Below the pieces are notes generated by a model, which was not told the origin of the DNA, did no database searches, and was given only the letters and a program-made list of their open reading frames with translations. A stretch of 40,197 nucleotides of DNA from a virus: positions 1-40,197 of IMG/VR virus record IMGVR_UViG_3300019458_000018; one strand, 5' to 3'. The translations under genes and the position numbers were made by a program. Positions 6,366 to 28,564 of this stretch are shown piece after piece. The number at the start of each line of letters is the position of its first letter. The first letter of the stretch is position 1.

Positions 6366-6393
6366 GCGCGTAACATAATGGCACGCCGCGTGC
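6366..6393 (+). promoter_or_regulatory. Right copy of the 28-bp inverted-repeat element; sigma-54-type promoter candidate facing the rightward operon
   Basis: The plus strand reads gcgcgtaacataaTGGCACGccgcGTGCa. It matches the reverse complement of 5830..5857 at 26 of 28 positions. Confidence 0.55.
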
Positions 6394-7223: not shown

Positions 7224-7224
7224 C

Positions 7225-7769: not shown

Positions 7770-8230
7770 CCGTCGGCGTCGCTGGCGGCGGAGACGACGA
7801 TGCGTGGCGCCGGCACGTCGTCGAGTGGCAGGGGCGCCGATGGGTCGCCGCGCTCCCGACGGGCGTCACTGCCGCGATGGTCCTCGTCGGGGCCGCGCAT
7901 TCGACCACGGCGGTCGACTGTCCCACTCCAAAGCAGATCCCGACGCGCCGCATCGGCACGGTGGATTTCCTCGCGCTCCGAGACTGGGCGGCACACGGGA
8001 CCGTGCGCGAGATCGCGGGCCGCATCATCGATCGCGCGCTGCTCCGTGAGTCGCTGCTACTCGTCCCGCCGTGTCAGCGCGTGACCCTGCGCGCGGACGA
8101 GGACCCCGAGGGCATGCTCCGGCTCGACGGCGATCCGTGGGTCGTACTCGTCATGCCGATGCGCATCACGGCTACCGACTATCACACGCTCGACGGCGAC
8201 CTAGAGTACCGCGACGAGGTCGACCCGTGA
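7766..8230 (+). CDS. Hypothetical protein (154 aa)
   Basis: GTG 7766 overlaps the upstream stop, and its own stop overlaps the ERF start. Confidence 0.6.
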   Translation: MTVGVAGGGDDDAWRRHVVEWQGRRWVAALPTGVTAAMVLVGAAHSTTAVDCPTPKQIPTRRIGTVDFLALRDWAAHGTVREIAGRIIDRALLRESLLLVPPCQRVTLRADEDPEGMLRLDGDPWVVLVMPMRITATDYHTLDGDLEYRDEVDP

Positions 8231-8973: not shown

Positions 8974-8977
8974 TGCG

Positions 8978-9358
8978 ATGACCTCGAAGCGCCCGATCGT
9001 GGCCGTCCCTCTCTGGTACGCGACCACCGCTCCCGTGCCTCGGTCGCAGCGAGTCGCGCACGTCTGCTGGCACGACGCTGGCGCCGTGTGTGGCGCGGAC
9101 CTGCACGGTGAGGCCGTCGCCGTGGTCGCCCGCCGCTTCCGCCGGTGTCCGTCGCATCCGAGCCGTTCGCCGGCGCACACTTCGCCGTTCGCGGGTAGCG
9201 GCACCGTCGGCATGGTCGCGGTGATGCACGGCCGCCGCTTCGTCGGCTGCGAGCTAAATCCGGAGTACGCGGCGCTCGCCGAGAAGCGCATCGCTCACCC
9301 GGACTGGGACGGGCGCGAGGTCGATGCGGACGAGAGGCAGGCGACGCTATGGCCGTGA
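8978..9358 (+). pseudogene. Remnant of a beta-class DNA methyltransferase (only the C-terminal motif I region kept), possibly still translated as a 126-aa ORF
   Basis: The C-terminus SPFAGSGTVGMVAVMHGRRFVGCELNPEYAALAEKRIAHPDW parallels DPFCGSGTVGMVAVANGRDFVGIDLDERSVELAVKRISFPDW of the 3200..4204 enzyme. No SPPY/DPPY motif is present. A different frame (9151..9195) reads VASEPFAGAHFAV, compared with VPTVPFHGAHTAV in the intact enzyme. Confidence 0.5.
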
Positions 9359-10122
9359 GGCACTACGCCGACGACACCGCGGAACTTTGGGCGGCCGACG
9401 CCACGGACGCGGAGGCAGCGGCTCGGGTGCTCGGCGGCCGTCGAGCAGCGGCGCTCGTCGTGGACGCGCCGTACTCGGACCGCACGCACGCGGGGCACGG
9501 CGCCGGTACAGCGGCGGCGACCCGCGCCTACGCCGCGCGCGTGGCGAGCGGCGTAGGCGCGCCCCACCGTGACCTGGCCTATCCGTCGTGGTCCTCGGTC
9601 GAGGTCGAGGCGTGCTGCGCCGCGTGGCTGCCTCACGCCGCCGGATGGTGCGTGTCACTTACCGATCACATCCTCGCGCCCGTGTGGGACGCGGCGTTCC
9701 GCGCCCGTGACCTCTACGTGTTCGCGCCGCTGCCGCTCGTCGAGACGGGCTCGCGCGTCCGACTGACCGGCGACGGGCCGAGCTGCTGGACCTGCTGGCT
9801 CGTCGTAGCCCGCCCGCGCTCGCGCGAATTCGCGTCCTGGGGCACGCTGCCGGGCGCGTACGTGCAGCCTGCCGAGCGGCGCTTCAGCGACCGCATCGTC
9901 GGCGGCAAGCCGATCCGGGCGACGCGCGCGATCGTCGCGGACTACTCCCGCCCCGGGGACCTCGTGGTCGACCCGTGCTGCGGCGCCGGCACCACGCTGC
10001 TCGCCGCGCGCCTCGAGGGCCGCCGCGCCATCGGCTGCGACACGTCGCATGCGCACCTCCAGATCGCAGCGCGACGGCTGCGGCCGTACCCGCCTGGCTC
10101 GCTATTCGGGGAGGCGACGTGA
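9349..10122 (+). CDS. DNA methyltransferase, beta-class, with an atypical motif IV (DAPY)
   Basis: ALVVDAPYSDRTH (motif IV variant) comes before LVVDPCCGAGTTLLAARLEGRRAIGCD (motif I). Confidence 0.75.
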   Translation: MAVRHYADDTAELWAADATDAEAAARVLGGRRAAALVVDAPYSDRTHAGHGAGTAAATRAYAARVASGVGAPHRDLAYPSWSSVEVEACCAAWLPHAAGWCVSLTDHILAPVWDAAFRARDLYVFAPLPLVETGSRVRLTGDGPSCWTCWLVVARPRSREFASWGTLPGAYVQPAERRFSDRIVGGKPIRATRAIVADYSRPGDLVVDPCCGAGTTLLAARLEGRRAIGCDTSHAHLQIAARRLRPYPPGSLFGEAT

Positions 10123-11057
10123 CCGCGATCGAGTGGACCGACGCGACGTGGAATCCCACGCGCGGCTGCTCGCGCGTCTCCCCGGGCTGTGTGAACTGCT
10201 ACGCGGAGCGCGTCGCGATGCGCTTCTCCGGCGAAGGTCAGCCTTACGCCGGCCTCGCGAAGCTCCGCGGTGGCCGTCCGGGCTGGACCGGGAAGGTGCG
10301 GCTCGTGCCGGAGATGCTCGCGAGGCCGCTGCACTGGCGCAAGCCGCGGCAGGTGTTCGTCAACTCGATGTCGGACCTGTTTCACGAGGCGCTGTCGGAC
10401 GAGGAGATCGCTGCGGTGGTCGGCGTGATGGCCGCGTGTCCTCAGCACTCGTTTCAAGTCCTCACGAAGCGTGCGGAGCGGATGCTGGAGTGGTACGAGT
10501 GGGTGTCGGATGCCGAGGAGCCGCATCCGGCGAATCGCTGTGTCGCGCTGGCGGAGGATGCGCTTCGTGACTGGCGCGACGGCAAGGGCTGGTGGAACAA
10601 GCAATGGCCGCTCACCAACGTTTGGCTCGGCGTCTCAGTCGAGGACCAGGAGTGCGCGAACGAGCGCATCCCGCACCTGCTCGACACGCCGGCCGCGGTG
10701 CGGTTCCTCTCGTGTGAGCCGCTGCTTGGGCCGATCGACCTGACGCCGTGGCTCCCGTCGCTCGACTGGGTGATCGTCGGGGGCGAGAGCGGCCCCGACG
10801 CGCGCCCGTGCGAGGTCGAGTGGGTGCGCGCCCTCGTGCGCCAGTGCCGCGAGGCCAATGTGGCTTGCTTCGTCAAGCAGCTCGGGGCGCGGGTGCACCA
10901 TGTGCGGCGCTGGGAGCCGCCGCCGCTCCGCTACGAGCGCCTCGACCTCACCGGCTGCGCACACGCACACCGAATCTTGCTCCGGCACCCCAAGGGCGGC
11001 GACCCGCGCGAGTGGCCCGAGGACCTGCGCGTCAGGGAGTATCCGACGGAGCGCTGA
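10119..11057 (+). CDS. Phage Gp37/Gp68 family protein (DUF5131; three-Cys motif)
   Basis: The N-terminus IEWTDATWNPTRGCSRVSPGCVNCYAE is the family signature. The C-terminal part carries FLSCEPLLGPIDL and VIVGGESG. GTG 10119 overlaps the methyltransferase stop. Confidence 0.85.
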   Translation: MTAIEWTDATWNPTRGCSRVSPGCVNCYAERVAMRFSGEGQPYAGLAKLRGGRPGWTGKVRLVPEMLARPLHWRKPRQVFVNSMSDLFHEALSDEEIAAVVGVMAACPQHSFQVLTKRAERMLEWYEWVSDAEEPHPANRCVALAEDALRDWRDGKGWWNKQWPLTNVWLGVSVEDQECANERIPHLLDTPAAVRFLSCEPLLGPIDLTPWLPSLDWVIVGGESGPDARPCEVEWVRALVRQCREANVACFVKQLGARVHHVRRWEPPPLRYERLDLTGCAHAHRILLRHPKGGDPREWPEDLRVREYPTER

Positions 11058-12535
11058 TGGCACGCGTCTGCCTCACCGAGCCCAGCGAGACAGGTGGCAT
11101 TGGAGCCAGCGGGGTCCGCATCCTGGAGTACGCCCTCGTGCGCGCCGGTCACACCGTCACGCGCGTCCATGTCCATCGCCGGGGCAGCTCTCAGCTCCCA
11201 CTGCTCGACGGCGGCACGGTCGAGCTGACGGGCCGCAGCACACAACGGCCGGATGCCTGGTTCGTGAGCGCGCTCTATCCGCGGCAATGGCTCGACGTGC
11301 CGCGATTGCTCGCGCGCATCGGGGTACCCGCGCTCGCGGAGCACCGCGCCGCCAGCGATCCGCTCGTCGCCTTCGGCGGTCAGTCCGCCATCGCTCCCGC
11401 ACCCCTGGAACCGTTCGCCGACGTCATCGCACTGGGCGACGGTGAGCGGACCGGGCCGGAGCTGGCCGAATGGTGCGCGCGCGGTCGGGAGTATGCCCTC
11501 GCCCGTGCCGACGAGTCGCCAGGCTACATGGTCCCCTCCCGGACCCGGCAGCTGACGCGCGTCGAGTCCGGTGCGAATCTCATCGGGGAGCTGCTGCCGG
11601 GCAGACCGATGGTCGAGATCGCGCGCGGCTGCAAGAGCAAGTGTGCATTCTGCCCGATCGGCTGGGCTGGCGGCTCCTACCGCGAGGCGTCGGAGGCCCG
11701 CGTCATGGCGAGCATAGACCGTGTGCGCGGGAAGAAGCTGCTCCTCTACGCGCCCGACGGCTCCAGTGTCGACGGCATCGCGAGGTACGAGCAGCGGCTC
11801 CATCAGGCCGGCTGCGGGAATGCCGCACGGGATGCGCGCCTCGATCGGCTCATGCGTCACGCGGTGGCGACGGCCCGGAGCTACTCCTTCGGCATCGAGG
11901 GGCTGTCTGCCCGGCTGCGCGCCGCTATCGGGAAGCCGATAGCGGACGAGGACATCGTCGCTGCGCACGGCACACTGGCACGCGTCGGCGTCAAATCGGT
12001 CCGGTGGTACATGATCATCGGGCTGCCGGGCGAGGACGATGCCGACCTGCGTGAGTTTCTCGAGCTCCTCGACGCCGCGCACGCCGTCTTCCCTCGCTCT
12101 CTGAGCGTCACTCTTACGCACTTTCAGGCTGTCCCGCACACGCCACTCGGGCGTCTCGCGAACCGATACGACGAGCGGGCTGTGGCGCGCGGGCTTGCGA
12201 TCCGCGAGCACCTCCGACGTGCCTGGGAGGCGAGCGAACGCAAGACGCTCGCGAGTCAGCCGAAGGGTCGGGAGTTGCACGAGTCCGATGTCGCCTTGCA
12301 GCGAGGCCCGCGCGAGGTAGCGCACGCGCTCATCGAGCTCGGGGGGAACCGCGCGGCATTCGGGGACGGCCGGTGGCGCGAGACCTTCGCCCGGCATGGC
12401 GCCGATCCGGAGCGAGCCCTCGACGCTCATCCGGATGCCACACCCTGGGATCACGTCGTCACGGGCGCGAAACCCGAGAAGCTCCGCGCGGCCCTCGCCC
12501 GGTACTGGCACGAGGTCTCGGGAGCCCCGTCGTGA
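11057..12535 (+). CDS. Radical SAM enzyme with an N-terminal B12-binding-like domain (class B type)
   Basis: MVEIARGCKSKCAFCPIGW contains CxxxCxxC. The upstream part is Rossmann-like (LVAFGGQSAIAPAPLEPFADVIALGDGE). The ATG overlaps the upstream stop (TGATG). Confidence 0.8.
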   Translation: MARVCLTEPSETGGIGASGVRILEYALVRAGHTVTRVHVHRRGSSQLPLLDGGTVELTGRSTQRPDAWFVSALYPRQWLDVPRLLARIGVPALAEHRAASDPLVAFGGQSAIAPAPLEPFADVIALGDGERTGPELAEWCARGREYALARADESPGYMVPSRTRQLTRVESGANLIGELLPGRPMVEIARGCKSKCAFCPIGWAGGSYREASEARVMASIDRVRGKKLLLYAPDGSSVDGIARYEQRLHQAGCGNAARDARLDRLMRHAVATARSYSFGIEGLSARLRAAIGKPIADEDIVAAHGTLARVGVKSVRWYMIIGLPGEDDADLREFLELLDAAHAVFPRSLSVTLTHFQAVPHTPLGRLANRYDERAVARGLAIREHLRRAWEASERKTLASQPKGRELHESDVALQRGPREVAHALIELGGNRAAFGDGRWRETFARHGADPERALDAHPDATPWDHVVTGAKPEKLRAALARYWHEVSGAPS

Positions 12536-14004
12536 CGCCGCCCCCGCCGCGCGACTACCAGGTCCGCGCGATCGACCGGGTCCGCGCAGCCTGGACCGAG
12601 GCCCGGCGCGTCGTGCTCGTCATGCCGACCGGCGGCGGCAAGACGCGCACGGGTGGCGCCCTGGTCGAGGGGCGCACACTCTGGCTCGCGCACCGGATCG
12701 AGCTGCTCGACCAGGCGGCCGGGGCGCTCCGGGCGCTCGGGCACGACGTCGGGATCGTGTCGCCCCGGCATCCGCGCGAGCCCGCGGCCCCTGTGCAGGT
12801 CGCGTCCCTGGACACGCTCGTCGCCCGCTCGGGCGTGCGTCCCCCGGCAGAGCTCGTGATCCTCGACGAGTGCCACCACGCGGCGGCCGAGACGTACTCA
12901 GCGATCCTGGCGGCGTACCCGGAGGCTCGGCACCTCGGGCTGACGGCGACCCCGCAGCGGAGCGACGGCCGACCGCTCGGGGACCATTACGACCGGCTGG
13001 TCGTCGGCGCTCAGTACTCCGAGCTGACCGCCGCCGGACATCTCGTGCGCTGCCGGGTCGCGAGCACGAGCGCGAGCGAGGGCTACCTCGGGAGCGACCT
13101 GGCGCAGCAGCCGCTCGACGCATGGCGCGCGATGCCCGAGGGCCCGCGGCCCACGTTCGCGTTCGCCGCGAGCGTGGCGCAAGCGCACAAGTGGGCCGCG
13201 GAATTCGTGGCAGCCGGCATCCCGAGCGCGGCGATCGACGGTGAGACGCCGGCCCCGATCCGGGACGAGACGCTGACCGCGTTCCGAGCCGGCGAGATCG
13301 CCGTGCTCTGGAACGTCTACGTGCTCACGGAGGGCGTCGACGTGCCGGCGGCGTCCTGCGTGCTGCTCGCTCGCGGCGTCTCGCACGCGGGCCCATATCT
13401 CCAGATGGTCGGCCGCGTGCTGCGCCCGGCGCCGGGCAAGGTGGACGCGCGGCTGCTCGACCTGAGCGGTGCGGTGCACGTCCACGGGCTCCCGACGGCG
13501 GATCGGGAGTACGCGCTCGATGGCCGGCCGATCCGGATCTCGGGTGAGCCGCTGAAGAACTGCCCGCAGTGCGGCGCGTGCATCCCGGCGGCGCAGTCAC
13601 CATGCCCCGAGTGCGGATACGTCTGGCCCGAGAAGCCGCGACGCAAGCCGAAGATTTGGGACATCGCGCTCCAGTGGGAGGTCGACGCGGCCGGCGGCGA
13701 CCTCGCGGCGGTGAGCGACGAGGCCAAGCGCCGCGAGTGGGCTCGGCTCGTGCGCGAGGCTGAGCGTCGCGACTGGTCGCTCGGCTTCGTGCGTCGCGAG
13801 TGGTCGGCCCTCTTCGGTGCGCCGCCACCGGACGAGTGGGCCGCCGAGCTGAGCGCCGGGGCCCAGGTGCGCGAGCTGCGAAAGCTCCTCCATGTGGCGC
13901 GCGCTCGGGGCTACCGCGACGGGTGGGTCCGGCACCGGTTCCGGGCGCATTTCGGGCGGTGGCCGACGGCGGCGTTGCGGGCGGCGGCGGAGGGCGAGCG
14001 GTGA
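12532..14004 (+). CDS. SF2 DEAD/DEAH-type DNA helicase with a C-terminal zinc ribbon
   Basis: Motifs: MPTGGGKT (Walker A), ILDECHH (motif II), LGLTATP (motif III), QMVGRVLR (motif VI), CPQCGACIPAAQSPCPECG (zinc ribbon). GTG 12532 overlaps the upstream stop. Confidence 0.9.
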   Translation: MTPPPPRDYQVRAIDRVRAAWTEARRVVLVMPTGGGKTRTGGALVEGRTLWLAHRIELLDQAAGALRALGHDVGIVSPRHPREPAAPVQVASLDTLVARSGVRPPAELVILDECHHAAAETYSAILAAYPEARHLGLTATPQRSDGRPLGDHYDRLVVGAQYSELTAAGHLVRCRVASTSASEGYLGSDLAQQPLDAWRAMPEGPRPTFAFAASVAQAHKWAAEFVAAGIPSAAIDGETPAPIRDETLTAFRAGEIAVLWNVYVLTEGVDVPAASCVLLARGVSHAGPYLQMVGRVLRPAPGKVDARLLDLSGAVHVHGLPTADREYALDGRPIRISGEPLKNCPQCGACIPAAQSPCPECGYVWPEKPRRKPKIWDIALQWEVDAAGGDLAAVSDEAKRREWARLVREAERRDWSLGFVRREWSALFGAPPPDEWAAELSAGAQVRELRKLLHVARARGYRDGWVRHRFRAHFGRWPTAALRAAAEGER

Positions 14005-14381
14005 CCGCCGCGCGGGGCTCCGAGTACCGCGACAACGAGTCGCAGCTCTCCGCCGCGATCCGTCTCGCCCTCGGGCGCGTCCCGGACCTCGTACTCTGGC
14101 GCAATAACTCGGGCGTCGCGGAGTACAAGAACGGCGCGCGCGTGCGTTACGGGCTCGTGCCCGGCGCGTCGGACCTGATCGGCATCTACCGTGGCCGCTT
14201 CGTCGCGATCGAAGTGAAGACGCCGCGCGGTCGGGTGACGCGCGAGCAGCAGATGTTTCTCGACCTCGTCGCGCGCCTCGGGGGCATCGCTCGCGTCGTG
14301 CGGAGTGTCGAGGAGGCGGTGGCGGTGTTTCCTCCGGCCCGCTCGGATCTTGACGATGCGGGCGCTCCCGACGTAGCGTGA
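14001..14381 (+). CDS. VRR-NUC domain nuclease
   Basis: PGASDLIGIYRGRFVAIEVKTPRGRVTREQQMFLDLVARLGGIARVVRSVEEA follows the VRR-NUC D...E-x-K...Q pattern. Confidence 0.8.
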   Translation: MTAARGSEYRDNESQLSAAIRLALGRVPDLVLWRNNSGVAEYKNGARVRYGLVPGASDLIGIYRGRFVAIEVKTPRGRVTREQQMFLDLVARLGGIARVVRSVEEAVAVFPPARSDLDDAGAPDVA

Positions 14382-14472
14382 CCGGCCCCATGGCTAGGGT
14401 CGACCTGCTCGGCGCACCCGTCTTCACTCGCCGCCCCCCGGTGCTCACCAGCCATGGGTCCGGGGGGCGGCG

Positions 14473-15333
14473 GTGAGCTGGCAGGCGCTCCGCTCCCTCG
14501 ACTCACCACAAGCAGCCGCCGAGCTGTATCTCCGCCTCGGCCTCTCCCCGATCGCGCTCTGGGCGCCGCTCCACGGGGGGTGCTCGTGTCCGCGCGGCGC
14601 GGACTGCGAGGCGCCCGGCAAGCACCCGTCTCACCCCGCGTGGCAGCGCGAGCGGCCCGTCCCGGGCACGCTGCTCCGCGAGCTCGGCGCATGGCCCCGC
14701 AACGTGGGGCTGCGCACCGGGACCCAGCCGAGCGGACGCGCCCTGCTCGTCGTCGACGTCGACGGCGGACGCGGGCCGCTCGCGGCGCTCGGAGAGCGGC
14801 TCGGCGCGCCGCTGCCCCGCACGCTCTGCGCTCGTACCGCACGCGGCTGGCATCTCGTCTACGCGGCGCCTCCGGACCAGCGCAACGCCGTGCGCCTCGG
14901 GGGGATCGCTGGGGTGGACGTGCGGGCCGAGGGTGGACAGATCGTCGCCCCGCCCTCCGTGCATGTGACCGGCGCGCGCTACCGCTGGACGCTCGCCATG
15001 CGCCCCGTCGCCGCTCCCGCCGCTCTGCTCGCTCTGCTCGCTCCGCCCCCGCGCGTCGCCCCTGTCCGCCACGAGCGCCGCGGAGACGGAGCGGGCGAGC
15101 GCGCGCTCGCGAAGGTCTGCGACTCCGTCGCTCGAGCCGGCGCGGGCACGCGGCACGACGCCGCCTTCCGGGGCGCAGTCTGGCTCGGCGCCCGGATCGC
15201 CGAGGGGCTCGATCTCGACGAGGCCCGGGCGGCGCGCGCGCTGGTCGATGCGGCCATGACAGCCGGGCTCTCCCAGCACGAGGCGGAGCGGTGCGCGCGT
15301 GACGGCATCGGCCTCGGCAGGCGCAGCGCATGA
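14473..15333 (+). CDS. Bifunctional primase-polymerase (Prim-Pol) domain protein
   Basis: Motifs: CSCPRGADCEAPGKHP, NVGLRTG...LLVVDVDG, TARGWHLVY, GVDVRAEGGQIVAPPSVH..G..YRW. Confidence 0.8.
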   Translation: MSWQALRSLDSPQAAAELYLRLGLSPIALWAPLHGGCSCPRGADCEAPGKHPSHPAWQRERPVPGTLLRELGAWPRNVGLRTGTQPSGRALLVVDVDGGRGPLAALGERLGAPLPRTLCARTARGWHLVYAAPPDQRNAVRLGGIAGVDVRAEGGQIVAPPSVHVTGARYRWTLAMRPVAAPAALLALLAPPPRVAPVRHERRGDGAGERALAKVCDSVARAGAGTRHDAAFRGAVWLGARIAEGLDLDEARAARALVDAAMTAGLSQHEAERCARDGIGLGRRSA

Positions 15334-16661
15334 CCGAGCCGCCCGACGACGCCTCGCCGCTCTTCGACGACGACGAGCCCGGCTCGCCACCACCGCCCGC
15401 GCTCCGCGCCGTCGGCCCCGAGGACGATGAGCCCGCGTGGTACCGCGCGCTCGCGCGCACCGACCAGGGGCGCCCGCGCAAGACCGCCGGCAACCTTGCG
15501 CTCCTGCTCCTCCACGACGAGGCGTGGCGCGACGTCTTCCGCCATGAGGTCTTCGCCGGCGGTGTGCTCTGCGGCGGATTCCCTCCGCTCCCTCGCATCC
15601 CCGAGAGCTGGGCCGCCACGCTGCCGCCGCCCGTCTCCACCACGGTCGACGACCATGTGCTCACTTACGTCGAGCACTGGGTCTCGCGGCTCTGGGGGCT
15701 CACCTACGAGCGCAGCATGATCCGCCACGCGATCGATGCCGCCGCTCGGGCGCGCCCGATCCACGCGCTCCAAGCGTACCTCGACGCCTGCGCCGACTCG
15801 TGGGACGGCACGCTCCGCGTCGACTCGTGGTGCCAGACCTACCTCGGCGCCGAGTCCGAGGGCCCAGAGACCGCCTGGATCTCTCGGTGGTGGCTCGTCT
15901 CCTGCGTCGCCCGCGCGTACGACCCGGGCTGCAAGGTCGACCACGTGCTCGTGCTCGAGGGCGAGCAAGGCGCCCGCAAGAACACCGCGCTCGAGGCGCT
16001 CGCGGGCGACCAGTGGTACCTCCCCGAGCTGCCGGACATCCGCGAGAAGGACGCGATGGGCGCGCTCGAGGGCGTCTGGCTCGTCTGCATCGACGAGCTG
16101 CGCGCGATCCGAGCCGCCGACGTCGAGCGCGTCAAGTCGTTCCTCTCGCGACGCATCGACCGCTACCGCCCCCCGTACGGGCGCGAGACCGTGTCGCGGC
16201 CGCGCACCGCCGTTTTCGCCGCCACGACCAACGCTCTGCAGTACCTCACCGACGAGACCGGCGCGCGCCGCTACTGGCCCGTCCGCTGCACCCACGTCGA
16301 CGTCGACGCCATCCGCCGCGACCGTGACCAGCTCTGGGGCGAGGCGGTCCACCTGTACCGCGGCGGCGCGCGCTGGTGGCCAGACACCGCGGAGGAGCGC
16401 TCAGCGCTCGGGGACCTGGTCGAGCGCCGCGACGTCGTCGACGAGTGGGAGGTGGGCGTCGCCCACGAGCTCCGCGGCCTCGACGAGACCACCGTCGGTG
16501 ACTGCCTCACCGCGCTCGGCCTCGAGCGGCGCGACTGGCGCCCCGCCGACCAGCACCGCGTCCGCCGCTGCCTCACCCGCCTCGGCTGGGTGGAGTGCCG
16601 CGCCTCCCGCTCGGAGCGCCGCCGCGTCTGGCGGCGACCCGACCCGACCGACGGCGCCTGA
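15330..16661 (+). CDS. VirE-like / D5-type P-loop NTPase (replicative helicase-primase partner)
   Basis: VLVLEGEQGARKNT (P-loop), LVCIDEL (Walker B-like), RYRPPYGRE...PRTAVFAATTN..YL.D.TG.RRYWPV. The ATGA overlap joins it to the Prim-Pol gene. Confidence 0.8.
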   Translation: MTEPPDDASPLFDDDEPGSPPPPALRAVGPEDDEPAWYRALARTDQGRPRKTAGNLALLLLHDEAWRDVFRHEVFAGGVLCGGFPPLPRIPESWAATLPPPVSTTVDDHVLTYVEHWVSRLWGLTYERSMIRHAIDAAARARPIHALQAYLDACADSWDGTLRVDSWCQTYLGAESEGPETAWISRWWLVSCVARAYDPGCKVDHVLVLEGEQGARKNTALEALAGDQWYLPELPDIREKDAMGALEGVWLVCIDELRAIRAADVERVKSFLSRRIDRYRPPYGRETVSRPRTAVFAATTNALQYLTDETGARRYWPVRCTHVDVDAIRRDRDQLWGEAVHLYRGGARWWPDTAEERSALGDLVERRDVVDEWEVGVAHELRGLDETTVGDCLTALGLERRDWRPADQHRVRRCLTRLGWVECRASRSERRRVWRRPDPTDGA

Positions 16662-16664
16662 GGG

Positions 16665-16694
16665 CCCCCCGCCCCCCCCGCCCCCCCGGCCCCC
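16665..16694 (-). other. C6-g-C8-g-C7-gg-C5 tract (G-quadruplex on the minus strand, i-motif on the plus strand)
   Basis: Read directly, starting 3 nt after the VirE stop codon: ccccccgccccccccgcccccccggccccc. Confidence 0.6.
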
Positions 16695-16755
16695 GGGCCC
16701 GCCACGCCTCTCCACCGTCCGGCCCACGGGCCGAGCCGGGCCGCCCCGCCCTTCG

Positions 16756-17007
16756 GATCCCGGGATCGATCCCGCCCCCCTGCCAGGGAGATCGCAAAGC
16801 CTTCCGCCCACTTGCCCCCCCGATCCCGGGATCCCGGGTCAAAGTGCCCATCCGAGGGGAGGCACTCTCGGCCCGGGGTAGCCCTGGCTGTAGATATCCC
16901 CCTACTATTTCTCTCTCTCTCTATGGGATCGCCGGGATCATGGGACACAAGGCCTCGGATCTACACCCGATCCCCGAGCCCGGGTAGCCCTGGGATCTGG
17001 CGGGATC
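16756..17007. repeat. Iteron/palindrome field: candidate origin, pac site or late regulatory region
   Basis: The 12-bp palindrome GATCCCGGGATC occurs twice (16756..16767 and 16822..16833). It overlaps the palindrome GGGATCGATCCC (16762..16773). There are at least 6 copies of GGGATC. GGGTAGCCCTGG occurs twice (16876..16887 and 16982..16993). A (CT)6 run sits at 16911..16922. Confidence 0.5.
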
Positions 17008-17043
17008 AGCCGGGACCTCGATCGTGGTACTCTCCGCCCGCCG

Positions 17044-17484
17044 ATGGGTACGTCGGCGCATCCACTCGCGAAAAAAGTGGAGTCTGTCCGCGCGCGCGCG
17101 GACGAGCTCTCGCGATTTTCTGCGCCGCAGAAGGTGACGCGGGTGCTGCAGGCGTACCTCGAGATAGCCGACCAGGCGCTGGCGTACGAGCGGACGTGGG
17201 TCGGGTCGGACGGTCGGACGCGGACGGAGCCGCTGCCGCACTTCGAGGTCGCGCGGAAGTGCTGGGACAGCATCGGTCGCGTGCTCCGGGTGATGGGCCC
17301 CGATGTCGTGGTCGAAGTGGGTGCGGGCACGCGGCCGATGGCGACGCTGGCAGCGGCGGCGGTGCGGCGGAGGGAGGACCGGATGCTGCTGTACGAGGCG
17401 CTCCGGGCGGGCGGGCACGCTGCGGAGGCAGCGGCGGAGCTTGGGCTCGTGGTAGTCACGACGACGGAAGGAGAGAGCGTATGA
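17044..17484 (+). CDS. Hypothetical protein, first gene of the late operon (possible small terminase or regulator)
   Basis: 146 aa with a C-terminal HTH-like stretch (RMLLYEALRAGGHAAEAAAELGL). The stop overlaps the next ATG (ATGA). The function is guessed from position only. Confidence 0.6.
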   Translation: MGTSAHPLAKKVESVRARADELSRFSAPQKVTRVLQAYLEIADQALAYERTWVGSDGRTRTEPLPHFEVARKCWDSIGRVLRVMGPDVVVEVGAGTRPMATLAAAAVRRREDRMLLYEALRAGGHAAEAAAELGLVVVTTTEGESV

Positions 17485-17879
17485 TCCTGGAGCTGCTGGA
17501 CGATCGTGTGCTGGTCGAGCCGGACCGCGAGGAGTACACGACCGGGGCGGGCATCGTGCTCGCGCTCGGGACGGACGCGAGCGCGAAGAAGGGGCGCATC
17601 GCTGTGCGACGAGGACGCGTAGTCGCCTGCGGGCCGGGCCGCGTGACGGAGCGCGGCGACCGCGTGGCCATCACGGTGCGCCCGGGCGACTACGTCTGGT
17701 ACTCGGTGATGCTCGCGGTCGAGCTGCGCTGGTCCACCGGCGACGAGTCGCGGCCGAGCGTGGACCTCGTGCTCTGCGAGGAGGGCGACCTGTGGGGCGT
17801 GGAGCGCGAGGGCGCGTGGGCGTTCGCGCCGATGGCGCGGGGCGCGGTCGCGCCTGTAGGCACCAGGATCCTGGCGTGA
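17481..17879 (+). CDS. GroES/Cpn10-like co-chaperonin
   Basis: LLDDRVLVEPDREEYTTGAGIVLA, GRVVACGPGRVTERGDRVAITVRPGDYVWYS and LVLCEEGDLWGV are collinear with E. coli GroES ([24 protein letters not shown] / GEVLAVGNGR...VKVGDIVIFN / VLIMSESDILAI). An SD-like GGAAGGAGAG precedes the ATG. Confidence 0.75.
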   Translation: MILELLDDRVLVEPDREEYTTGAGIVLALGTDASAKKGRIAVRRGRVVACGPGRVTERGDRVAITVRPGDYVWYSVMLAVELRWSTGDESRPSVDLVLCEEGDLWGVEREGAWAFAPMARGAVAPVGTRILA

Positions 17880-18706
17880 GCGTCTACCTCATCGCGGAGG
17901 TCGGCACGACACACGACGGCAGCCTCGGCAACGCGCTCGCGCTCGTCGATGCGCTGTCGGTCGGCGAGTATCCCGTCAACGCGGTGAAGTTCCAGGACCA
18001 CTTCGCCGACATCTCCAGTCTCGACTCGCCCGCGCCGTGCCCTCGCGGGTTCCTCGCGCCCGTCGAGTCGCGGCGCGAGTACCTCGAGCGCGTGAGCGCG
18101 TGGGGCGCGCGCGAGTGGCGTGCGCTCCGTGACGCGGCCCGGCGGCGCAAGATCGACTACGTCGTCTCGCCGTTCTCGGTGGCCGCTGCCGAGCGGCAGT
18201 GGCAGTGGTGCGAGCCGGACCGCTGGAAGGTCGCCTCGGGCCAGGCGACGAACCTCGCGATGCTCGCGTTTCTGGGGGGCACGGGTCGCCCGGTCATCCT
18301 GTCGGCGGGCCTAGTGACGGCCGACGAGCGGCAGGTCGCCGACGACGCTCTGCGCGCCGCCGGCTGCACGGACATCGCGTGGCTGTGCTGCACGAGCGAG
18401 TACCCGTGCCCGCCCGAGCACGCGCGGTACCAGGAGTGGCGGTACTTCGATGGTCTCTCCGACCACACGCGAGGGAAGTGGGCGCCCATCGCAGCGGTGG
18501 CCCGCGGGGCGCGCATCCTCGAGAAGCACGTCACGCTAGACACGCGGATGTACGGCTCGGATGCGTGGCACTCGATGAGCGTCGAGGAGTTCCGGGCGCT
18601 CTGCGAGGAGCTGGCGGCGCTCGAGGTGGCGATGACCAGCGGGATGCGCGGGTGGATCCCGACCGGCGCGCGAGAGCGCTACCTGTACCGGGAGCCCGGG
18701 ACATGA
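17876..18706 (+). CDS. neuB: NeuB-family nonulosonic (sialic) acid synthase, TIM-barrel part only
   Basis: Motifs: YLIAEVGTTHDGSLGNALALVDA..NAVKFQ, VVSPFS, WKVASGQATNLAMLAF, GRPVILSAGL, LCCTSEYPCPPE, GLSDHT, ARILEKHVTLD. At 276 aa it has no room for the C-terminal SAF domain. Confidence 0.85.
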   Translation: MSVYLIAEVGTTHDGSLGNALALVDALSVGEYPVNAVKFQDHFADISSLDSPAPCPRGFLAPVESRREYLERVSAWGAREWRALRDAARRRKIDYVVSPFSVAAAERQWQWCEPDRWKVASGQATNLAMLAFLGGTGRPVILSAGLVTADERQVADDALRAAGCTDIAWLCCTSEYPCPPEHARYQEWRYFDGLSDHTRGKWAPIAAVARGARILEKHVTLDTRMYGSDAWHSMSVEEFRALCEELAALEVAMTSGMRGWIPTGARERYLYREPGT

Positions 18707-19293
18707 GGGTCGAGCTGGTCATCCCAGCACGCGGAGGCAGCGTCCGCCTCCCGCGCAAGAACCTCGAGAAGATCGGCGGGCGGACGCTCGTCGAGTGGGC
18801 GATCCGCCCGCACGCCGGCGCGACGCCGTGGGTGATCACGGACGACGCGGAGATCGCGGCGGTGGCGTACGCCGCGGGGGCGCATGTCTTGCGCGACCAC
18901 CCGGGTGACGGGCCGATGGCGCGCGTGGCGATGGCGGCGGCCGAGGCGCTCGGGCTGCACGGCGGCCATGGGCTCGTGATCGTGCAGCCCACGACGCCGC
19001 TGAGGGAGTGGCGGGGCGTCGCGCGCGTGGTCAAGGCGCTGCTCGACGGCCATCCGCGAGCGGTCACGGTCGACGCTCGAGGCACCGGGCGGCGCACGGG
19101 CAGCGCGTACGGCGCGCTCGTGCAGCACTGGGCAGAGGGCGAGCGTCACGGACTCACGCCCGACGAGATGTGGTCGACCGACGAGATGTGGTCGACCGCG
19201 CTGTGCTTCGCGAGCGACGACGGCCCCGATATCGACACGCGGGAGGACCTCGAGGAAGCCCGGCGCCTCTACGCGGGCAGGCAGGCGCCGTGA
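18703..19293 (+). CDS. neuA: Acylneuraminate cytidylyltransferase (CMP-nonulosonic acid synthetase)
   Basis: The N-terminus VIPARGGSVRLPRKNLEKIGGRTLVEWAI is the CTP_transf_3 signature, and the C-terminus carries DIDTREDLEEA. Confidence 0.8.
   Translation: MRVELVIPARGGSVRLPRKNLEKIGGRTLVEWAIRPHAGATPWVITDDAEIAAVAYAAGAHVLRDHPGDGPMARVAMAAAEALGLHGGHGLVIVQPTTPLREWRGVARVVKALLDGHPRAVTVDARGTGRRTGSAYGALVQHWAEGERHGLTPDEMWSTDEMWSTALCFASDDGPDIDTREDLEEARRLYAGRQAP
19161..19196. repeat. Perfect 18-bp tandem duplication inside neuA
   Basis: cgacgagatgtggtcgac at 19161..19178 is repeated exactly at 19179..19196 and encodes DEMWST twice. Confidence 0.97.
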
Positions 19294-20297
19294 GGGTGGC
19301 GTTCGCGGTGCTGTCGCGCGCGAATTGGTCGAGCGTGGCGCCCGTGGCGACGCTGCTCCGGCGCGAGGGGCACGGCGTCGTGCTGCTCCGTGGCGGCTCG
19401 GCGCTGGTCGACCGGTACGGCGCGGGCGGTCTGCCCGAGCTGGGGCCGGGCGAGTACGAGATCCGCGCGCTCGTGGAGGATGGTCCGACGGAGACGGCGT
19501 GCCTCGCGGCGGCGCAGACGGGGGCGATCCTGCGCCGCGAGCGGCCCGACTGGCTCTACGTCGTCGGCGACCGCCACGAGATGCTCGGCGCGGCGATGGC
19601 GGGGGCGTACGAGGGCGTCCCGATCGCGCACCAGATGGGCGGGGAGCGCTCGGGGCTGATCGACGACCGCGTGCGGGACGCGATCAGCGCGCTAGCGACG
19701 CTGCATCTCGCGGCCACCGCGCAGGCGTCGGAGAGGCTGCGCTCGTTCGTCGCGGGCACGGTGGTGCAGACCGGCTGCCCGCGCATCGACGGGGTGCGCG
19801 AAGCGGTGGCGGGCGAGTGGCCTCTACCGGCGGAGTATCTGCTCGTCTACGTACACCCCGCGGACGCCGGAGTGGCGCGGGCCACCATGAGCGCAGCGGT
19901 AGCGACGGGGCTGCCAGTACGTCTGTGCTGGCCGAACGCCGACCCAGGGAGCGCCGCCGTCGTCCGGGAGCTGCGCGAGCACGGGCCAGACGTCGCTGCG
20001 TATCGCGCGCTCAGCCCGGCCCGCTACGCGCTGATGATGCACTCCTGCTCGGTGCTCGTGGGCAACTCCTCGAGCGGGCTCCGCGAGGGCGCGTGGCTCG
20101 GCGTGCCCGCCGTCAATGTGGGCACACGGCAGCAGCTCCGGGAGCGCGCCGCGAACGTGCTGGACGTAGGCCTCGACGCGGGCGCGATCCTGGAGGCTAT
20201 CGACGCGCAGCGCGCGCACGGCCGCTACCAGCGGAGCGACCTCTACGGCGACGGGCACGCGGCGCCACGCATCGTCGCCGCTCTCGGTGGCGCATGA
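19290..20297 (+). CDS. neuC: Hydrolysing UDP-N-acetylglucosamine 2-epimerase (NeuC-type)
   Basis: Motifs: VVGDRHEMLGAAMAG, IAHQMGGERSGLIDDRVRDAISALATLHLA, GCPRIDG, LVGNSSSGLREG, VNVGTRQQ.R. Confidence 0.85.
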   Translation: MRVAFAVLSRANWSSVAPVATLLRREGHGVVLLRGGSALVDRYGAGGLPELGPGEYEIRALVEDGPTETACLAAAQTGAILRRERPDWLYVVGDRHEMLGAAMAGAYEGVPIAHQMGGERSGLIDDRVRDAISALATLHLAATAQASERLRSFVAGTVVQTGCPRIDGVREAVAGEWPLPAEYLLVYVHPADAGVARATMSAAVATGLPVRLCWPNADPGSAAVVRELREHGPDVAAYRALSPARYALMMHSCSVLVGNSSSGLREGAWLGVPAVNVGTRQQLRERAANVLDVGLDAGAILEAIDAQRAHGRYQRSDLYGDGHAAPRIVAALGGA

Positions 20298-21670
20298 GCG
20301 CCGCGCCGATGCCTGCGTTTCCCGAGGCGCCGCGCGACGCGACAGTCATCGTGCAGCGCGAGGTCGACATGGCGCTCGCGACGGGTCGGCGGGTGGTCCA
20401 CGCGTCGCCGCAGGTGCTCGTCGAGAGGTGGTCTGACGTCTGCCGGCGGTACCCGGCCGTGACGGTGATCGGCGACGTTGAGTTCCAGCGGCAGATCGAG
20501 GAGAGCTGCCACATCACTGCGGCGAACGTGGGCAACACCGTCAGTCGCGGGCGCGCGTGGGTCGAGCACGCGATCGACGCGCTGCCCGACCTGCCCCGGT
20601 GGCCGTGGTCCGGAGGGCTCGAGGCGCGCGGGCTGCCGGCGTTCATCGTGGGCGCAGGGCCATCGCTGGATCGGTCCCTCGAGCAGCTCGGCGCGCGCGA
20701 CCTGCGAGACCACGGACTCGTCTTCGCCGTCAACGCTGCCACACGCGCGGTGGGGCATCACATCTGCGTCGGGAACGAGTCGAACGACCAGCGAGGGAAG
20801 ACCGTGCCGCTCGCCGACGCGGTGCTCGTCACGGGGCCGCAGGCGCATCCGGGACTGCGCAGGGAGCACCCGGGCCGCGTCGCGTGGGTATTCGCAGGCG
20901 AGCTCGGCGGCATGCTCGGGCACGTCGTCGGCCGGCCCGTCACGCCGTCGTGCTCCAGCTCGACCTCGCTCGCCGTGAGCCTCGCGCTCGGCGCAGGGTG
21001 CGACCCCATCGTGCTCGTGGGGCAGGATCTCGCGTTCCCCACGGGGACGATCTACGCGGCGGCAGTCGGGGGATTTGGCGGAGCGGCCCCGATCGTCGAC
21101 GGTGCATTCGCGTACGACTGGAGCCCGCGCACGCGAGCGCACCCGCGCGCCTCTCCGCTGCCGACCACGGAGCCCGTCTGCTACGTGCCGGCGTACGGGG
21201 GCGACTCTCAGGTGCCGACCGTGATGCCGATGGCCGCCGTGGGGCGATGGATCAGCGGCGCCGTCGCGTATCACGGACGGCGCCGGGGCATTCAGACGAG
21301 CGAGCTTGGGATGCGCATCGAGGGCTTCGCCGAGCAGCCGCTCGGCGAGGTGCTCGACGCGCTGCCCGTGCGGCCCGTGACGTGGGCGATCCACGACGAG
21401 CCGCTCCGCGGCGAGAGCGTGGAGGCGTTCCGCGCCTCGGAGCTCGCTGCGCTTGCCGCCGTCGTGGCTGCCCCCACGGCGGAGCACGCGGCCCGGAGCA
21501 GGCTGCTCGATCCGTGGGCGTTCGCGGCGGTCGCGCGCTTCCTCGAGGAGCGCCGGGCCGGCCCCGTCGAGGACTACCGCAGCGAGTACCGCCGGGCCCG
21601 GCGCGACCGCGTGCGCCTGCGCGCGCTGCTCCGCGACGAGGCGAGAGAGCTGCTCGCGAGGCTCGGGTGA
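20294..21670 (+). CDS. Maf-like (motility-accessory-factor / DUF115, MptE-like) putative nonulosonic-acid transferase
   Basis: GLPAFIVGAGPSLDRSLEQL and SSSTSLAVSLALGAGCDPIVLVGQDLAFPTGTIYA resemble the two conserved blocks of DUF115/Maf proteins. ATGA overlaps join it to neuC upstream, and a GTGA overlap joins it to the terminase downstream. Confidence 0.65.
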   Translation: MSAAPMPAFPEAPRDATVIVQREVDMALATGRRVVHASPQVLVERWSDVCRRYPAVTVIGDVEFQRQIEESCHITAANVGNTVSRGRAWVEHAIDALPDLPRWPWSGGLEARGLPAFIVGAGPSLDRSLEQLGARDLRDHGLVFAVNAATRAVGHHICVGNESNDQRGKTVPLADAVLVTGPQAHPGLRREHPGRVAWVFAGELGGMLGHVVGRPVTPSCSSSTSLAVSLALGAGCDPIVLVGQDLAFPTGTIYAAAVGGFGGAAPIVDGAFAYDWSPRTRAHPRASPLPTTEPVCYVPAYGGDSQVPTVMPMAAVGRWISGAVAYHGRRRGIQTSELGMRIEGFAEQPLGEVLDALPVRPVTWAIHDEPLRGESVEAFRASELAALAAVVAAPTAEHAARSRLLDPWAFAAVARFLEERRAGPVEDYRSEYRRARRDRVRLRALLRDEARELLARLG

Positions 21671-26792: not shown

Positions 26793-28028
26793 ATGGGTGC
26801 AGTCACCTCCACGACGTTCGACGCCGCGCTGAAGCAGTACTACTCGGACGAGGAAGTCCGAGACGTCACGAGCGACGGCAACCCGCTGTTCGGGATGATC
26901 TCGAAGGCACCGGATCTCACGGGCAAGACGTTCGAGCAGCCGATCCAGTGGGGCCGCGGGCAAGGGCGAAGCGCGAGCATTCAGAAGGCCATCGCGCGAC
27001 AGGGAGCGAACAAGTACGACCGCTTCTCCTGCACGACCGCGGACGACTACGGCGTCATCTCGATCGAGCGCAAGGTGATGAAGACGTCGGGCAACATGCG
27101 CGGCGCGTTCTTCCAGGCGCAGACGCGCGAGATCGACTCGATGCTCCAGGAGCTCGCGCGGTCCATCTCCTGGAGCATGTTCCGCAACTCAGGCGGCGCC
27201 ATCGGGCGCGTGAGCACGGCGACCGCGCCGTCTACCACGACGCTCACGCTCAACGAGTCCGAGGACATGTCGATCTTCGAGGCGGAGCAGGTGCTCGTCG
27301 CTTCGGACAACGACGGCTCGGTCTCCACCGACGTGCTGCTCGCGGGCTCGCAGGAGATCGCGAGCGTCAACGAGGACGGGCCGACGCTCACCGGGGCCGG
27401 CAACTGGACGGCCGGGATCCCGAGCCTCGGCGTCGGGGATTTTCTGTTCATCGACGGCGACTTCCAATCGAAGATCCAGGGCTTCGGTGGCTGGATGAGC
27501 ATCCGCAACGACGCCGCTGCGACGCCGGGTACCACCGCATTCTTCGGGGTCGACCGCTCGCAGCACGTCACGCGACTCGCAGGACGGCGCATCACGGCCA
27601 TCGGGGACCCGATACACGAGGCGGTCCCGCGCGCCGCGCGGCAGCTCGGGCGCAATGGCCACAAGGTCGATTGCTTCTTCTGCTCGCACCAGAAGTACCA
27701 GGACCTCCAGATCGAGCTCAGCAACAAGGTCGTGTTCGATCGGTACAACGCCAGCGAGAGCGTCGGGTACGAGTCGATCACGATCCGCGGACCACACGGA
27801 CCGATCAAGGTGTACGCGGATCGCAACTGCCCAGACAAGTTCGGGTTTCTCATCGCGAAAGACGACTGGACGTTGCGGTCGATCGGCCCCGTGCCGGATC
27901 TGCATGACGAGGACGGCGTCCGGATGCTCCGCAACACGAACGATGACTCGTTCCAGGTGCGCGCAAGCTACTACGCGCAGATGGTGACCGCGAACACGGC
28001 CGCGATGGCGGCCCTCACGTTGGAGTAA
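26793..28028 (+). CDS. Major capsid protein
   Basis: 411 aa, directly after the scaffold, with an SD-like GAGG 8 nt upstream of the ATG. The composition is typical of a structural protein. The call rests on position and size. Confidence 0.8.
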   Translation: MGAVTSTTFDAALKQYYSDEEVRDVTSDGNPLFGMISKAPDLTGKTFEQPIQWGRGQGRSASIQKAIARQGANKYDRFSCTTADDYGVISIERKVMKTSGNMRGAFFQAQTREIDSMLQELARSISWSMFRNSGGAIGRVSTATAPSTTTLTLNESEDMSIFEAEQVLVASDNDGSVSTDVLLAGSQEIASVNEDGPTLTGAGNWTAGIPSLGVGDFLFIDGDFQSKIQGFGGWMSIRNDAAATPGTTAFFGVDRSQHVTRLAGRRITAIGDPIHEAVPRAARQLGRNGHKVDCFFCSHQKYQDLQIELSNKVVFDRYNASESVGYESITIRGPHGPIKVYADRNCPDKFGFLIAKDDWTLRSIGPVPDLHDEDGVRMLRNTNDDSFQVRASYYAQMVTANTAAMAALTLE

Positions 28029-28033
28029 CGGCG

Positions 28034-28564
28034 ATGGCAGAAATCACGAGCGAGAAGTTCCTCGATGCGATGCGCGCCGTCGCCGGCGGCCACTTCGAGG
28101 ACTCGACCGGCGGTATCAAGGACCGGGTGCAGGGCCTCGTCACGCAGCGGATCGAGCTGCCCGTCAACGCGGAGAACGTCACGCTCACCGATGCCGTCAC
28201 GCGCGCACTGTCGAGTCGCGCCTCGGCCGTCGGCGGCGGGAAGATCGTGCGCATCACGTACACGCCCGTCGCGAGCTTCACGGTCAGCCAGACCGACCAT
28301 CAGGTGGTGAGCGTCGTGAAGCTGTCGGCGCCGACGTGGAGCGCGACGCTCAGCGTCGGCACGTTCACGAGCACGACCGATGGCGTCGCCGCCGCCGTGT
28401 ACCACGGTCCCGACAAGCCGAGCCGCTTCACGCTCTCGACGACCACCGACAACCTCAAGGTGAACGACGGAGACTCGTTCTTCTTCGTCGTGGCGAAGAA
28501 CGGCGCCGCGGGCGCGAACACGCACACGACGCAGCTCGGACGGATCACGATCGAGGTGCGCTGA
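28034..28564 (+). CDS. Virion-associated hypothetical protein (Ser/Thr-rich, beta-rich; possible decoration protein)
   Basis: 176 aa, immediately after the capsid gene. Confidence 0.65.
   Translation: MAEITSEKFLDAMRAVAGGHFEDSTGGIKDRVQGLVTQRIELPVNAENVTLTDAVTRALSSRASAVGGGKIVRITYTPVASFTVSQTDHQVVSVVKLSAPTWSATLSVGTFTSTTDGVAAAVYHGPDKPSRFTLSTTTDNLKVNDGDSFFFVVAKNGAAGANTHTTQLGRITIEVR

Follow-up and report, generated by a model that had tools for sequence, protein, structure and literature searches.

A compact cassette for predicted nonulosonic acid synthesis and Maf-type glycosylation at the replication/packaging junction in a clade of uncultivated podophages

The DNA analyzed here, hereafter the window, is the whole of IMG/VR virus record IMGVR_UViG_3300019458_000018 (positions 1 to 40,197; 40,197 nucleotides), and the system in question is a cassette of four consecutive genes predicted to make an activated nonulosonic (sialic-type) acid and to transfer it to protein. 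The two ends of the window (1–123 and 40075–40197) are identical over 123 bp, so that the contig closes on itself; the window is a complete genome of 40,074 bp, representing either a circular assembly or a terminally redundant molecule, with a G+C (GC) content of 72%. The cassette and the gene that follows it are arranged as listed below, with protein lengths in amino acids (aa).

17876–18706, plus strand: NeuB-type protein, 276 aa
18703–19293, plus strand: NeuA-type protein, 196 aa
19290–20297, plus strand: NeuC-type protein, 335 aa
20294–21670, plus strand: Maf-like protein (DUF115/MAF_flag10), 458 aa; an alternative start at 20309 gives 453 aa
21667–23067, plus strand: large terminase subunit (TerL); PF03237 at 2.2e-8 and tblastn matches to annotated phage terminases

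As the original prediction had stated, the four genes are joined to one another and to the TerL gene by 4-nt overlaps, each of the ATGA or GTGA type, and the Maf gene is translationally coupled to TerL. The public call of the Maf gene begins 15 nt downstream (453 aa), and whether NeuC and Maf overlap hinges on which of the two starts is used. Analysis of GC content by codon position identified the called frame as the coding frame for each cassette gene, with a third-position GC content (GC3) of 0.90–0.92 that equals the GC3 of the rest of the genome. Downstream of TerL lie an SU10/P22-type portal gene, a scaffold-sized gene, the major capsid protein gene, small head genes, an SU10-type adaptor gene and genes for large tail proteins; the cassette heads these packaging and morphogenesis genes, in agreement with its earlier placement within the virion morphogenesis block. 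Because it heads this operon and is coupled to TerL, co-expression with the virion genes is expected.

The Maf-like protein matched PF01973 (MptE-like/DUF115) at 2.1e-13 (50.9 bits against a cut-off of 34.6) and keeps the GAGPSL and GQD signature blocks, with G122, P123, S124, L125 and D245 invariant or nearly so in the Maf alignment. An AlphaFold (AF2) model built on a 22-sequence alignment had a predicted local distance difference test (pLDDT) score of 91, and its top Foldseek match was the Magnetospirillum Maf structure 5MU5 (E 8.4e-13, probability 1.00, 542 aligned columns), the next matches, at about 1e-3, being the MptE kinases (8sd5/8sbu), SteA and eukaryotic sialyltransferases, ST8SiaIII among them. 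A profile search of PDB sequences also placed 5mu5 first (4e-7); a profile was needed, as a single-sequence search of the PDB returned nothing. The structural match and the flagellar context of the cellular homologues, described below, uphold the identification of this protein as a Maf. Mafs act in the cytoplasm and can O-link N-acetylneuraminic acid (Neu5Ac) to Ser/Thr from the cytidine monophosphate (CMP) donor CMP-Neu5Ac (bioRxiv 10.1101/2020.06.03.131540; PMC11339370). From its sequence and modeled fold, the phage protein is a putative CMP-nonulosonate:protein Ser/Thr O-glycosyltransferase. It is also a trimmed one. The known Maf has three domains, an N-terminal Rossmann-like, a central and a C-terminal helical domain (PMC11339370), an architecture from which the phage Maf departs: phage Mafs are 443–488 aa long against 552–685 aa for cellular Mafs, and the alignment shows about 150 N-terminal and about 45 C-terminal helical residues to be absent. 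Most tblastn matches of the phage Maf to cellular Mafs stop near residue 363, which, like the loss of the N-terminal domain, would fit a changed acceptor-recognition module.

The four family assignments made from the DNA letters all held, since PF03102, PF02348, PF02350 and PF01973 each scored above its gathering threshold. The NeuB-type protein matched PF03102 at 7.7e-42 (143.8 bits, cut-off 22.1). Its best NCBIfam model was NeuB_NnaB TIGR03569 (166 bits, equivalog cut-off 399.65), PseI TIGR03586 giving 131 bits, and in the PDB B. subtilis SpsE, N. meningitidis NeuB and a PseI all matched at about 1e-22. A HMMER alignment to 1xuu, read by eye, shows that positions E25, K53, K129, S132, S154, Y186, S213, H215, E234, H236 and D247 are kept and that two are substituted relative to N. 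meningitidis NeuB (E134 to Q, N184 to S); the two metal-binding His and the catalytic Glu/Lys/Asp positions are retained, and the motifs are invariant across the phage clade. The protein ends after the TIM barrel, without a PF08666 match and hence without a C-terminal SAF domain, as do the NeuB-type proteins of all the phage relatives. In N. meningitidis NeuB the SAF domain supplies Arg314 for sugar binding. A NeuB-family protein of only 290 aa has been crystallized (6ncs). The NeuA-type protein matched PF02348 (CTP_transf_3) at 2.7e-10 (40.9 bits, cut-off 22.6) over profile positions 3–119 of 217 only; the N-terminal P-loop IPARGGS.R.PRKN and the C-terminal DID...DL are conserved in all phage copies, and an internal (dimerization) segment of about 30–45 aa that is found in the homologues of cells and of an unrelated phage (L018, see below) is missing.

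The NeuC-type protein matched PF02350 (Epimerase_2) at 1.5e-45 and scored 193 bits with NeuC_NnaA TIGR03568 (equivalog cut-off 235.9) against 34.6 bits with wecB. In the PDB, it matched the human GNE epimerase domain over its full length at 1.2e-33 (120 bits) and a LegG-type enzyme partially at 1e-23 (87 bits), whereas non-hydrolyzing enzymes matched at 5e-10 or weaker. Its GDR, GGE.S..D and HP motifs are conserved, and by these comparisons it is clearly a hydrolyzing 2-epimerase, not a non-hydrolyzing one. NeuC-type epimerases take part in the synthesis of neuraminic and legionaminic acids but not in that of pseudaminic acid; for this reason, the sugar is predicted to be of the Neu5Ac or legionaminic (Leg) type and not pseudaminic. 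Since the genome holds no dehydratase, aminotransferase or acetyltransferase, the self-sufficient reading would be Neu5Ac made from UDP-N-acetylglucosamine (UDP-GlcNAc). None of the three proteins reaches its NCBIfam equivalog cut-off, so we do not assign a product type. The proposal of a complete CMP-Neu5Ac pathway thus stands for the three enzyme families, but Neu5Ac itself is no more than a plausible product, given the SAF-less NeuB, the missing NeuA segment and the alternative of a legionaminic-type sugar. All four cassette enzymes are shorter than their cellular counterparts. PHROGs held no family match for NeuB, NeuA, NeuC, Maf or the product of g28034, a structural-module gene discussed below, and PADLOC held none for the cassette.

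Among 50,697 GenBank phage records we found no cultivated relative, a 15-kb megablast and a Maf tblastn search both being empty; a NeuB search of the same records gave two distant records only. By contrast with the ~630-aa Polyangiaceae proteins, many of which were recovered when 5.8 billion proteins were searched with the Maf, a small group of ~450-aa proteins was also recovered, and the contigs bearing this short Maf are phages of the same type as the window. The survey of related phages for synteny, which the original prediction had proposed, placed the cassette in at least seven distinct related uncultivated podophage genomes, all in one clade (the window, L001, L003, L030, L031/L033, L042 and the P0010 contig); the cassette-bearing relatives include four IMG/VR genomes of about 40 kb. 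Three of the loci are arranged as follows.

L001: gene order NeuA-Maf-TerL-portal
L003: NeuB-NeuC-NeuA-Maf, three small open reading frames (ORFs), TerL, portal, capsid, adaptor
L042: found independently through g28034; carries NeuC-NeuA-Maf

The location of the cassette is constant, at the replication/packaging junction in all bearing genomes, and most phage relatives have the order NeuB-NeuC-NeuA. The phage copies share 34–55% identity, yet keep their catalytic motifs, which are invariant across genomes with portals that are only 38% identical. To place these genomes, we built neighbor-joining trees, without support values; a scan of viral contigs with a single portal sequence gave nothing, and an alignment was used instead. 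In the portal and capsid trees the cassette-bearing genomes, which span 58–72% GC, are monophyletic, and five relatives with 10 kb of upstream sequence are without the cassette. In the Maf tree the phage proteins likewise form a single clade, with the flagellar Mafs of Polyangiaceae as its sister group. The monophyly of the clade on both kinds of tree indicates that the cassette has been retained for a long time under selection, and we read it as an old, vertically inherited clade trait. The earlier suggestion of a cargo cassette did not survive this comparison: recent insertion is ruled out by the clade-wide conservation and by a GC3 equal to that of the genome. We also rejected a prophage with a role in lysogenic conversion. 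The contig closes on itself, family scans of the window detected no integrase (small ORFs were not exhaustively searched), and the coupling to TerL in a complete genome without a detected integrase argues against such a role.

DUF115 proteins are not confined to this clade. They occur, unstudied, in UniProt entries of uncultured phages and in several unrelated viral contigs with varied contexts. One of these belongs to an unrelated phage lineage with a Mu-type portal and a T4-type terminase (L018, IMGVR_UViG_3300014613_000025, 73 kb), which at 6669–19000 carries a 373-aa NeuA, a SAF-less NeuB of 289 aa and a full-length Maf of 627 aa, about 5 kb upstream of the terminase gene. Another record, labeled viral (L016, IMGVR_UViG_3300022858_000245), holds at 2304–14066 genes for NeuB, a metallophosphatase, a C92 amidase, NeuC, a methyltransferase, NeuA, a LarN-like protein, a 648-aa Maf and a second methyltransferase, and has the look of a flagellin-glycosylation island from a cellular genome.

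Across 185,579 species genomes, 79 cellular Maf loci were recovered, almost all from Polyangiaceae, Myxococcales or Myxococcota metagenome-assembled genomes (MAGs). Flagellin genes lie within 10 kb in 68 of the 79, the Maf gene often being directly upstream of two flagellin genes in a flagellar cluster, and some of these flagellar islands also hold NeuA, NeuB and NeuC (L052, L113). The closest cellular Mafs are 28–36% identical to the phage protein over the catalytic part. Because they sit in Polyangiaceae/Myxococcota flagellar loci, the phage cassette is best read as a captured and streamlined myxobacterial flagellin-glycosylation module, and its host is probably a flagellated myxobacterium. 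Myxobacteria are classically seen as non-flagellated gliders. Many of the Polyangiaceae/Myxococcales MAG loci (L004, L045–L123) comprise full flagellar clusters, with FlgH, FlgI, FlgK, FliD, FliS, flagellins and chemotaxis genes, together with a Maf gene. In one Myxococcota MAG (L097, JBCCEA010000051.1), a Maf-NeuB-NeuC-NeuA cluster stands alone at 5969–10585; its NeuB carries a SAF domain, it is flanked by genes for a Mur ligase, a laccase-like protein, HemE and an amine oxidase, and no flagellin gene lies within 17 kb. This cluster suggests that Maf-type glycosylation occurs outside flagellar loci in Myxococcota, and, consisting of exactly these four genes, it shows that the set is a natural unit.

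Family scans found no flagellin in the window. The acceptor was sought by comparing cassette-positive and cassette-negative relatives gene by gene in the structural module. Two adjacent genes of the window come into question.

26793–28028, plus strand: major capsid protein of an SU10-type podophage module (phrog_14242, major head protein; PF17236 weak), a possible acceptor
28034–28564, plus strand: g28034, 176 aa, starting 5 nt after the capsid gene, a candidate acceptor or decoration protein

Both had been put forward earlier as Ser/Thr-rich candidates. For the capsid protein the proposal gained nothing, as the alignment shows no Ser/Thr-rich insertion specific to cassette-bearing phages. For g28034 it stood: Ser and Thr make up 22% of the product, compared to about 9% in non-structural proteins, and several Ser/Thr positions are invariant. 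Moreover, g28034 is the only gene of the structural module that tracks the cassette. A g28034 hidden Markov model (HMM) matched every cassette-positive locus and none of the five cassette-negative relatives with 10 kb of upstream sequence, in which a g28564-like gene directly follows the capsid gene. The family forms 6 clusters among 5.8 billion proteins. A captured flagellin fragment was considered and rejected (hhalign probability of 0.3% against host-lineage flagellin), and Foldseek returned non-significant generic beta-sandwiches only, so that no fold was assigned. On these comparisons, g28034 is the best acceptor candidate. At the corresponding place in the cassette-negative relative L041 (14326–14961), two small ORFs with a CxxC...HCH pattern fill the extra space that separates the capsid gene from the following head gene and look like HNH-endonuclease insertions.

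Starting from the enzyme families, the fold of the Maf, the catalytic motifs, the clade-wide conservation and an origin near flagellar Mafs, we propose the following scheme for the enzymatic activities, the sugar, the timing of expression and the acceptor. NeuC would hydrolyze and epimerize a UDP-2-acetamido sugar, converting UDP-GlcNAc to N-acetylmannosamine in the self-sufficient version, and NeuB would condense the NeuC product with phosphoenolpyruvate to form a nonulosonic acid, either Neu5Ac or, if the host supplies a di-N-acetyl precursor, a legionaminic-type sugar. NeuA would activate this acid with CTP, and in the cytoplasm the Maf-like enzyme would then use the CMP-sugar to glycosylate Ser/Thr hydroxyls on a protein. 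With a virion surface protein, the most probable acceptor, the progeny would gain an acidic sugar coat. We consider that there is a little less than an even chance that a CMP-activated Neu/Leg-type sugar is made late and that the trimmed Maf O-glycosylates a virion protein, the product of g28034 being the first candidate. We are more doubtful of the narrower proposal, in which a sialic-type nonulosonic acid is O-linked to g28034 itself by a Maf captured from a flagellin island and retargeted to the virion. If true, this would be the first phage particle glycosylated with a nonulosonic acid and the first natural non-flagellin substrate of a Maf, and the virion sugar might mimic the flagellar glycan of the host.

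Several points weigh against glycosylation of the virion. The nearest relatives of the transferase adjoin flagellin genes (68/79), and Mafs have been reported not to modify non-cognate flagellins (PMC11339370), so that adopting an acceptor other than flagellin would be a major change. To recognize the acceptor, known Mafs require a helical module, either a TPR domain or a separate GlfM protein (bioRxiv 10.1101/2023.12.03.569772), and neither a TPR domain nor a GlfM-like partner was identified for the phage Maf. The SAF-less NeuB and the NeuA without its internal segment might be impaired or altered in specificity. As for g28034, its co-occurrence with the cassette counts as a single evolutionary event because the cassette clade is monophyletic, and is therefore statistically weak and no more than suggestive; its structure model is poor (pLDDT 57), and it matches no known decoration protein.

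Host flagellin is the obvious other acceptor. The phage Maf, with its own donor supply, would then re- or over-glycosylate flagellin in the infected cell, possibly masking a flagellar receptor against superinfection or keeping progeny from being trapped on debris. The flagellin genes within 10 kb of 68 of the 79 closest cellular Maf genes, often directly downstream of them, speak for this explanation, as do the sister position of the phage Mafs to flagellar Mafs, the presence of the same NeuA, NeuB and NeuC types in islands of the host lineage (L052, L113) and the specificity of known Mafs for their cognate flagellin (PMC11339370). However, the cassette opens the morphogenesis block and is joined to TerL in a genome without a detected integrase; flagellin made just ahead of lysis would leave little time for its export; and the phage Maf lacks both the N-terminal domain and some of the C-terminal helices of the flagellar enzymes. 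In addition, the 58%–72% GC range of the clade implies different hosts, across which the cassette could be kept only by re-adapting repeatedly to new flagellins. We regard this explanation as unlikely, albeit one to be taken seriously. Still less probable, in our view, is a third kind of target, either a host envelope glycan or a non-virion protein of host or phage, which would leave an altered surface or protein and an undecorated virion. The central domain does resemble glycan sialyltransferases (ST8SiaIII and mammalian sialyltransferases in Foldseek), a similarity of Maf to Cst-II has been reported (PMC11339370), the L097 cluster lies outside a flagellar locus, and DUF115 proteins occur in unrelated viral contigs with varied contexts. 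Nevertheless, the nearest homologues are flagellar protein glycosyltransferases, we saw no membrane segment, lipid-carrier enzyme or polysaccharide-export gene in the window, and late expression would leave little time to remodel the surface.

The two other explanations concern the enzymes rather than the acceptor. As the four proteins are all shorter than those of cells and miss the NCBIfam equivalog cut-offs, the cassette might be a decaying remnant, with the shortened NeuB, NeuA and Maf inactive and kept by linkage only. This is very improbable, considering that the frames are intact with full codon bias, that the catalytic motifs are invariant across genomes with 38%-identical portals, and that the truncations are common to the whole clade, which points to stable streamlined forms and not to ongoing decay; the crystallized NeuB-family protein of 290 aa (6ncs) also speaks against decay. 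Finally, PF01973 is named after MptE, and MptE (8sd5/8sbu) is among the structural matches at about 1e-3, so the DUF115 protein could be an MptE-like pterin pyrophosphokinase or another enzyme acting on nucleotides or DNA. We give this hardly any credence: the E-value of the Maf structure is better than that of the next match by a factor of about a billion (nine orders of magnitude), in an alignment that spans the entire protein, the family tree groups the protein with flagellar Mafs, CMP-nonulosonate genes are always adjacent, and no 5-hydroxymethylpyrimidine-forming enzyme or folate gene was found in the window.

The region upstream of the cassette contains the following features.

16662–17043, no strand: non-coding gap of 382 nt that precedes the overlap chain
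17044–17484, plus strand: orf17044, 146 aa, first gene of the overlap chain; could be a small terminase
17481–17879, plus strand: GroES/Cpn10-like co-chaperonin, 132 aa, directly upstream of NeuB

The overlap chain runs in the order orf17044, GroES-like, NeuB, NeuA, NeuC, Maf and TerL, and so starts two genes before NeuB. The original prediction took the gene ahead of the cassette for a possible small terminase, a claim that we correct here: the upstream neighbor is GroES-like (PF00166 at 4.2e-12; phrog_3188, co-chaperonin GroES, at 2.7e-9; about 1e-11 with the NCBIfam GroES models, below their cut-off). The product of orf17044 had no significant match in Pfam, NCBIfam or PHROG and no homologue in the related phage loci compared, and no homologue of the GroES-like gene was seen in the related loci. 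Some phages use co-chaperonins for capsid folding, and the GroES-like gene of the window recalls these. The window contains 10 CCGGGATC motifs against 3.6 expected, and 6 of the 10 cluster at 16756–16939, within the 382-nt gap, where several copies form overlapping GATCCCGGGATC palindromes. Judging from this cluster, the gap is a possible candidate for a late promoter, a regulator site or a packaging site; a scan for sigma-70 promoters and terminators was uninformative at 72% GC.

The left arm of the genome codes for an amidase, two N6/N4 DNA methylases, a PDDEXK nuclease with an ERF recombinase, DUF5131 and radical-SAM proteins, a helicase, a primase-polymerase and a VapE-type helicase. The DUF5131 protein (phage Gp37/Gp68; PF07505 at 1e-83) and then the radical-SAM protein are encoded at 9975–12535; the former also matches the PADLOC candidate defense components PDC-M41B and PDC-M30B (about 1e-74), and the pair possibly serves nucleic-acid modification or counter-defense. 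A perfect 30-bp tandem duplication at 3562–3621, in a minus-strand N6/N4 DNA methylase gene (3200–4204), gives an in-frame 10-residue repeat. A long array with 9/12/18-nt periodicity occupies 4388–4800, in a minus-strand ORF (4223–5032) with no family match, and a run of GGGTCT hexamers occupies 5739–5804; the last two arrays indicate repetitive, low-complexity proteins.

To our knowledge, no role other than the glycosylation of flagellin has been described for Mafs, and the basis of their acceptor choice is a current question. The original prediction knew of no characterized phage system pairing this pathway with a Maf, and a full-text literature search agreed: neither a Maf encoded by a phage nor a virion bearing nonulosonic acid turned up in it (most subscription journals lie outside that search). 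At 3.8 kb, with a SAF-less NeuB, a 196-aa NeuA and a 458-aa Maf, this would be the smallest natural CMP-nonulosonate and protein-sialylation system seen so far, which gives it appeal for glyco-engineering, and its trimmed Maf could show which domains the enzyme can do without and which set the acceptor. Were the acceptor a virion protein, phage particle glycosylation, so far a matter of mycobacteriophages and ordinary sugars, would extend to sialic-acid-like sugars, with a bearing on adsorption, particle stability and evasion of recognition by hosts or predators. The survey also reveals flagellar and Maf loci in many uncultivated Polyangiaceae genomes.

The phage protein shares with the flagellin Mafs of Campylobacter, Aeromonas, Magnetospirillum (5MU5), Clostridium botulinum and Shewanella the DUF115/MAF_flag10 domain, the fold and the pairing with CMP-nonulosonate genes, and the chemistry of those enzymes, cytoplasmic O-glycosylation of Ser/Thr from a CMP-sugar, is also expected of it. 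Unlike them, it is encoded by a phage beside a terminase gene in a genome with no flagellin, it is missing about 150 N-terminal and about 45 C-terminal residues, and it comes with no identified TPR domain or GlfM-like partner. The Myxococcota/Polyangiaceae loci, including the stand-alone cluster of L097, have the same four gene families, and share the order NeuB-NeuC-NeuA with most of the phage relatives, but their proteins are full length (Mafs of 552–650 aa, a 347-aa NeuB with SAF, a longer NeuA) and are encoded beside flagellin or housekeeping genes, whereas those of the phage are shorter. The NeuC/NeuB/NeuA pathway to CMP-Neu5Ac of E. coli K1 and N. meningitidis and the LegG/LegI/LegF end of the legionaminic pathway consist of the same three families in the same reaction order, and the phage enzymes keep the signature of hydrolyzing epimerases and the metal-binding and catalytic residues of NeuB. 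In contrast to those enzymes, the phage proteins score below the equivalog cut-offs, with no NeuB SAF domain and a shortened NeuA, and their product would serve a protein transferase instead of capsule or lipooligosaccharide synthesis.

Viral glycosylation of viral particles offers two further comparisons. Freeman and colleagues reportedly described mycobacteriophage glycosyltransferase genes near structural genes, for which O-glycosylation of capsid and tail proteins has been proposed or demonstrated; these phages use ordinary GT-family transferases and nucleotide sugars of the host, with no nonulosonic acid, Maf or phage-encoded sugar pathway. Giant viruses encode nucleotide-sugar pathways and transferases that glycosylate their own fibrils. 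Sugar pathway and transferase are likewise both virus-encoded in the window, although use on its own particle is only proposed for the phage, and the giant viruses differ in having eukaryotic hosts, other sugars and transferases, and far larger genomes, whereas the phage system fits into 3.8 kb of 40 kb. In summary, the enzymes are of known kinds, and what is new is their setting: phage-borne, miniaturized, conserved throughout a clade and probably retargeted.

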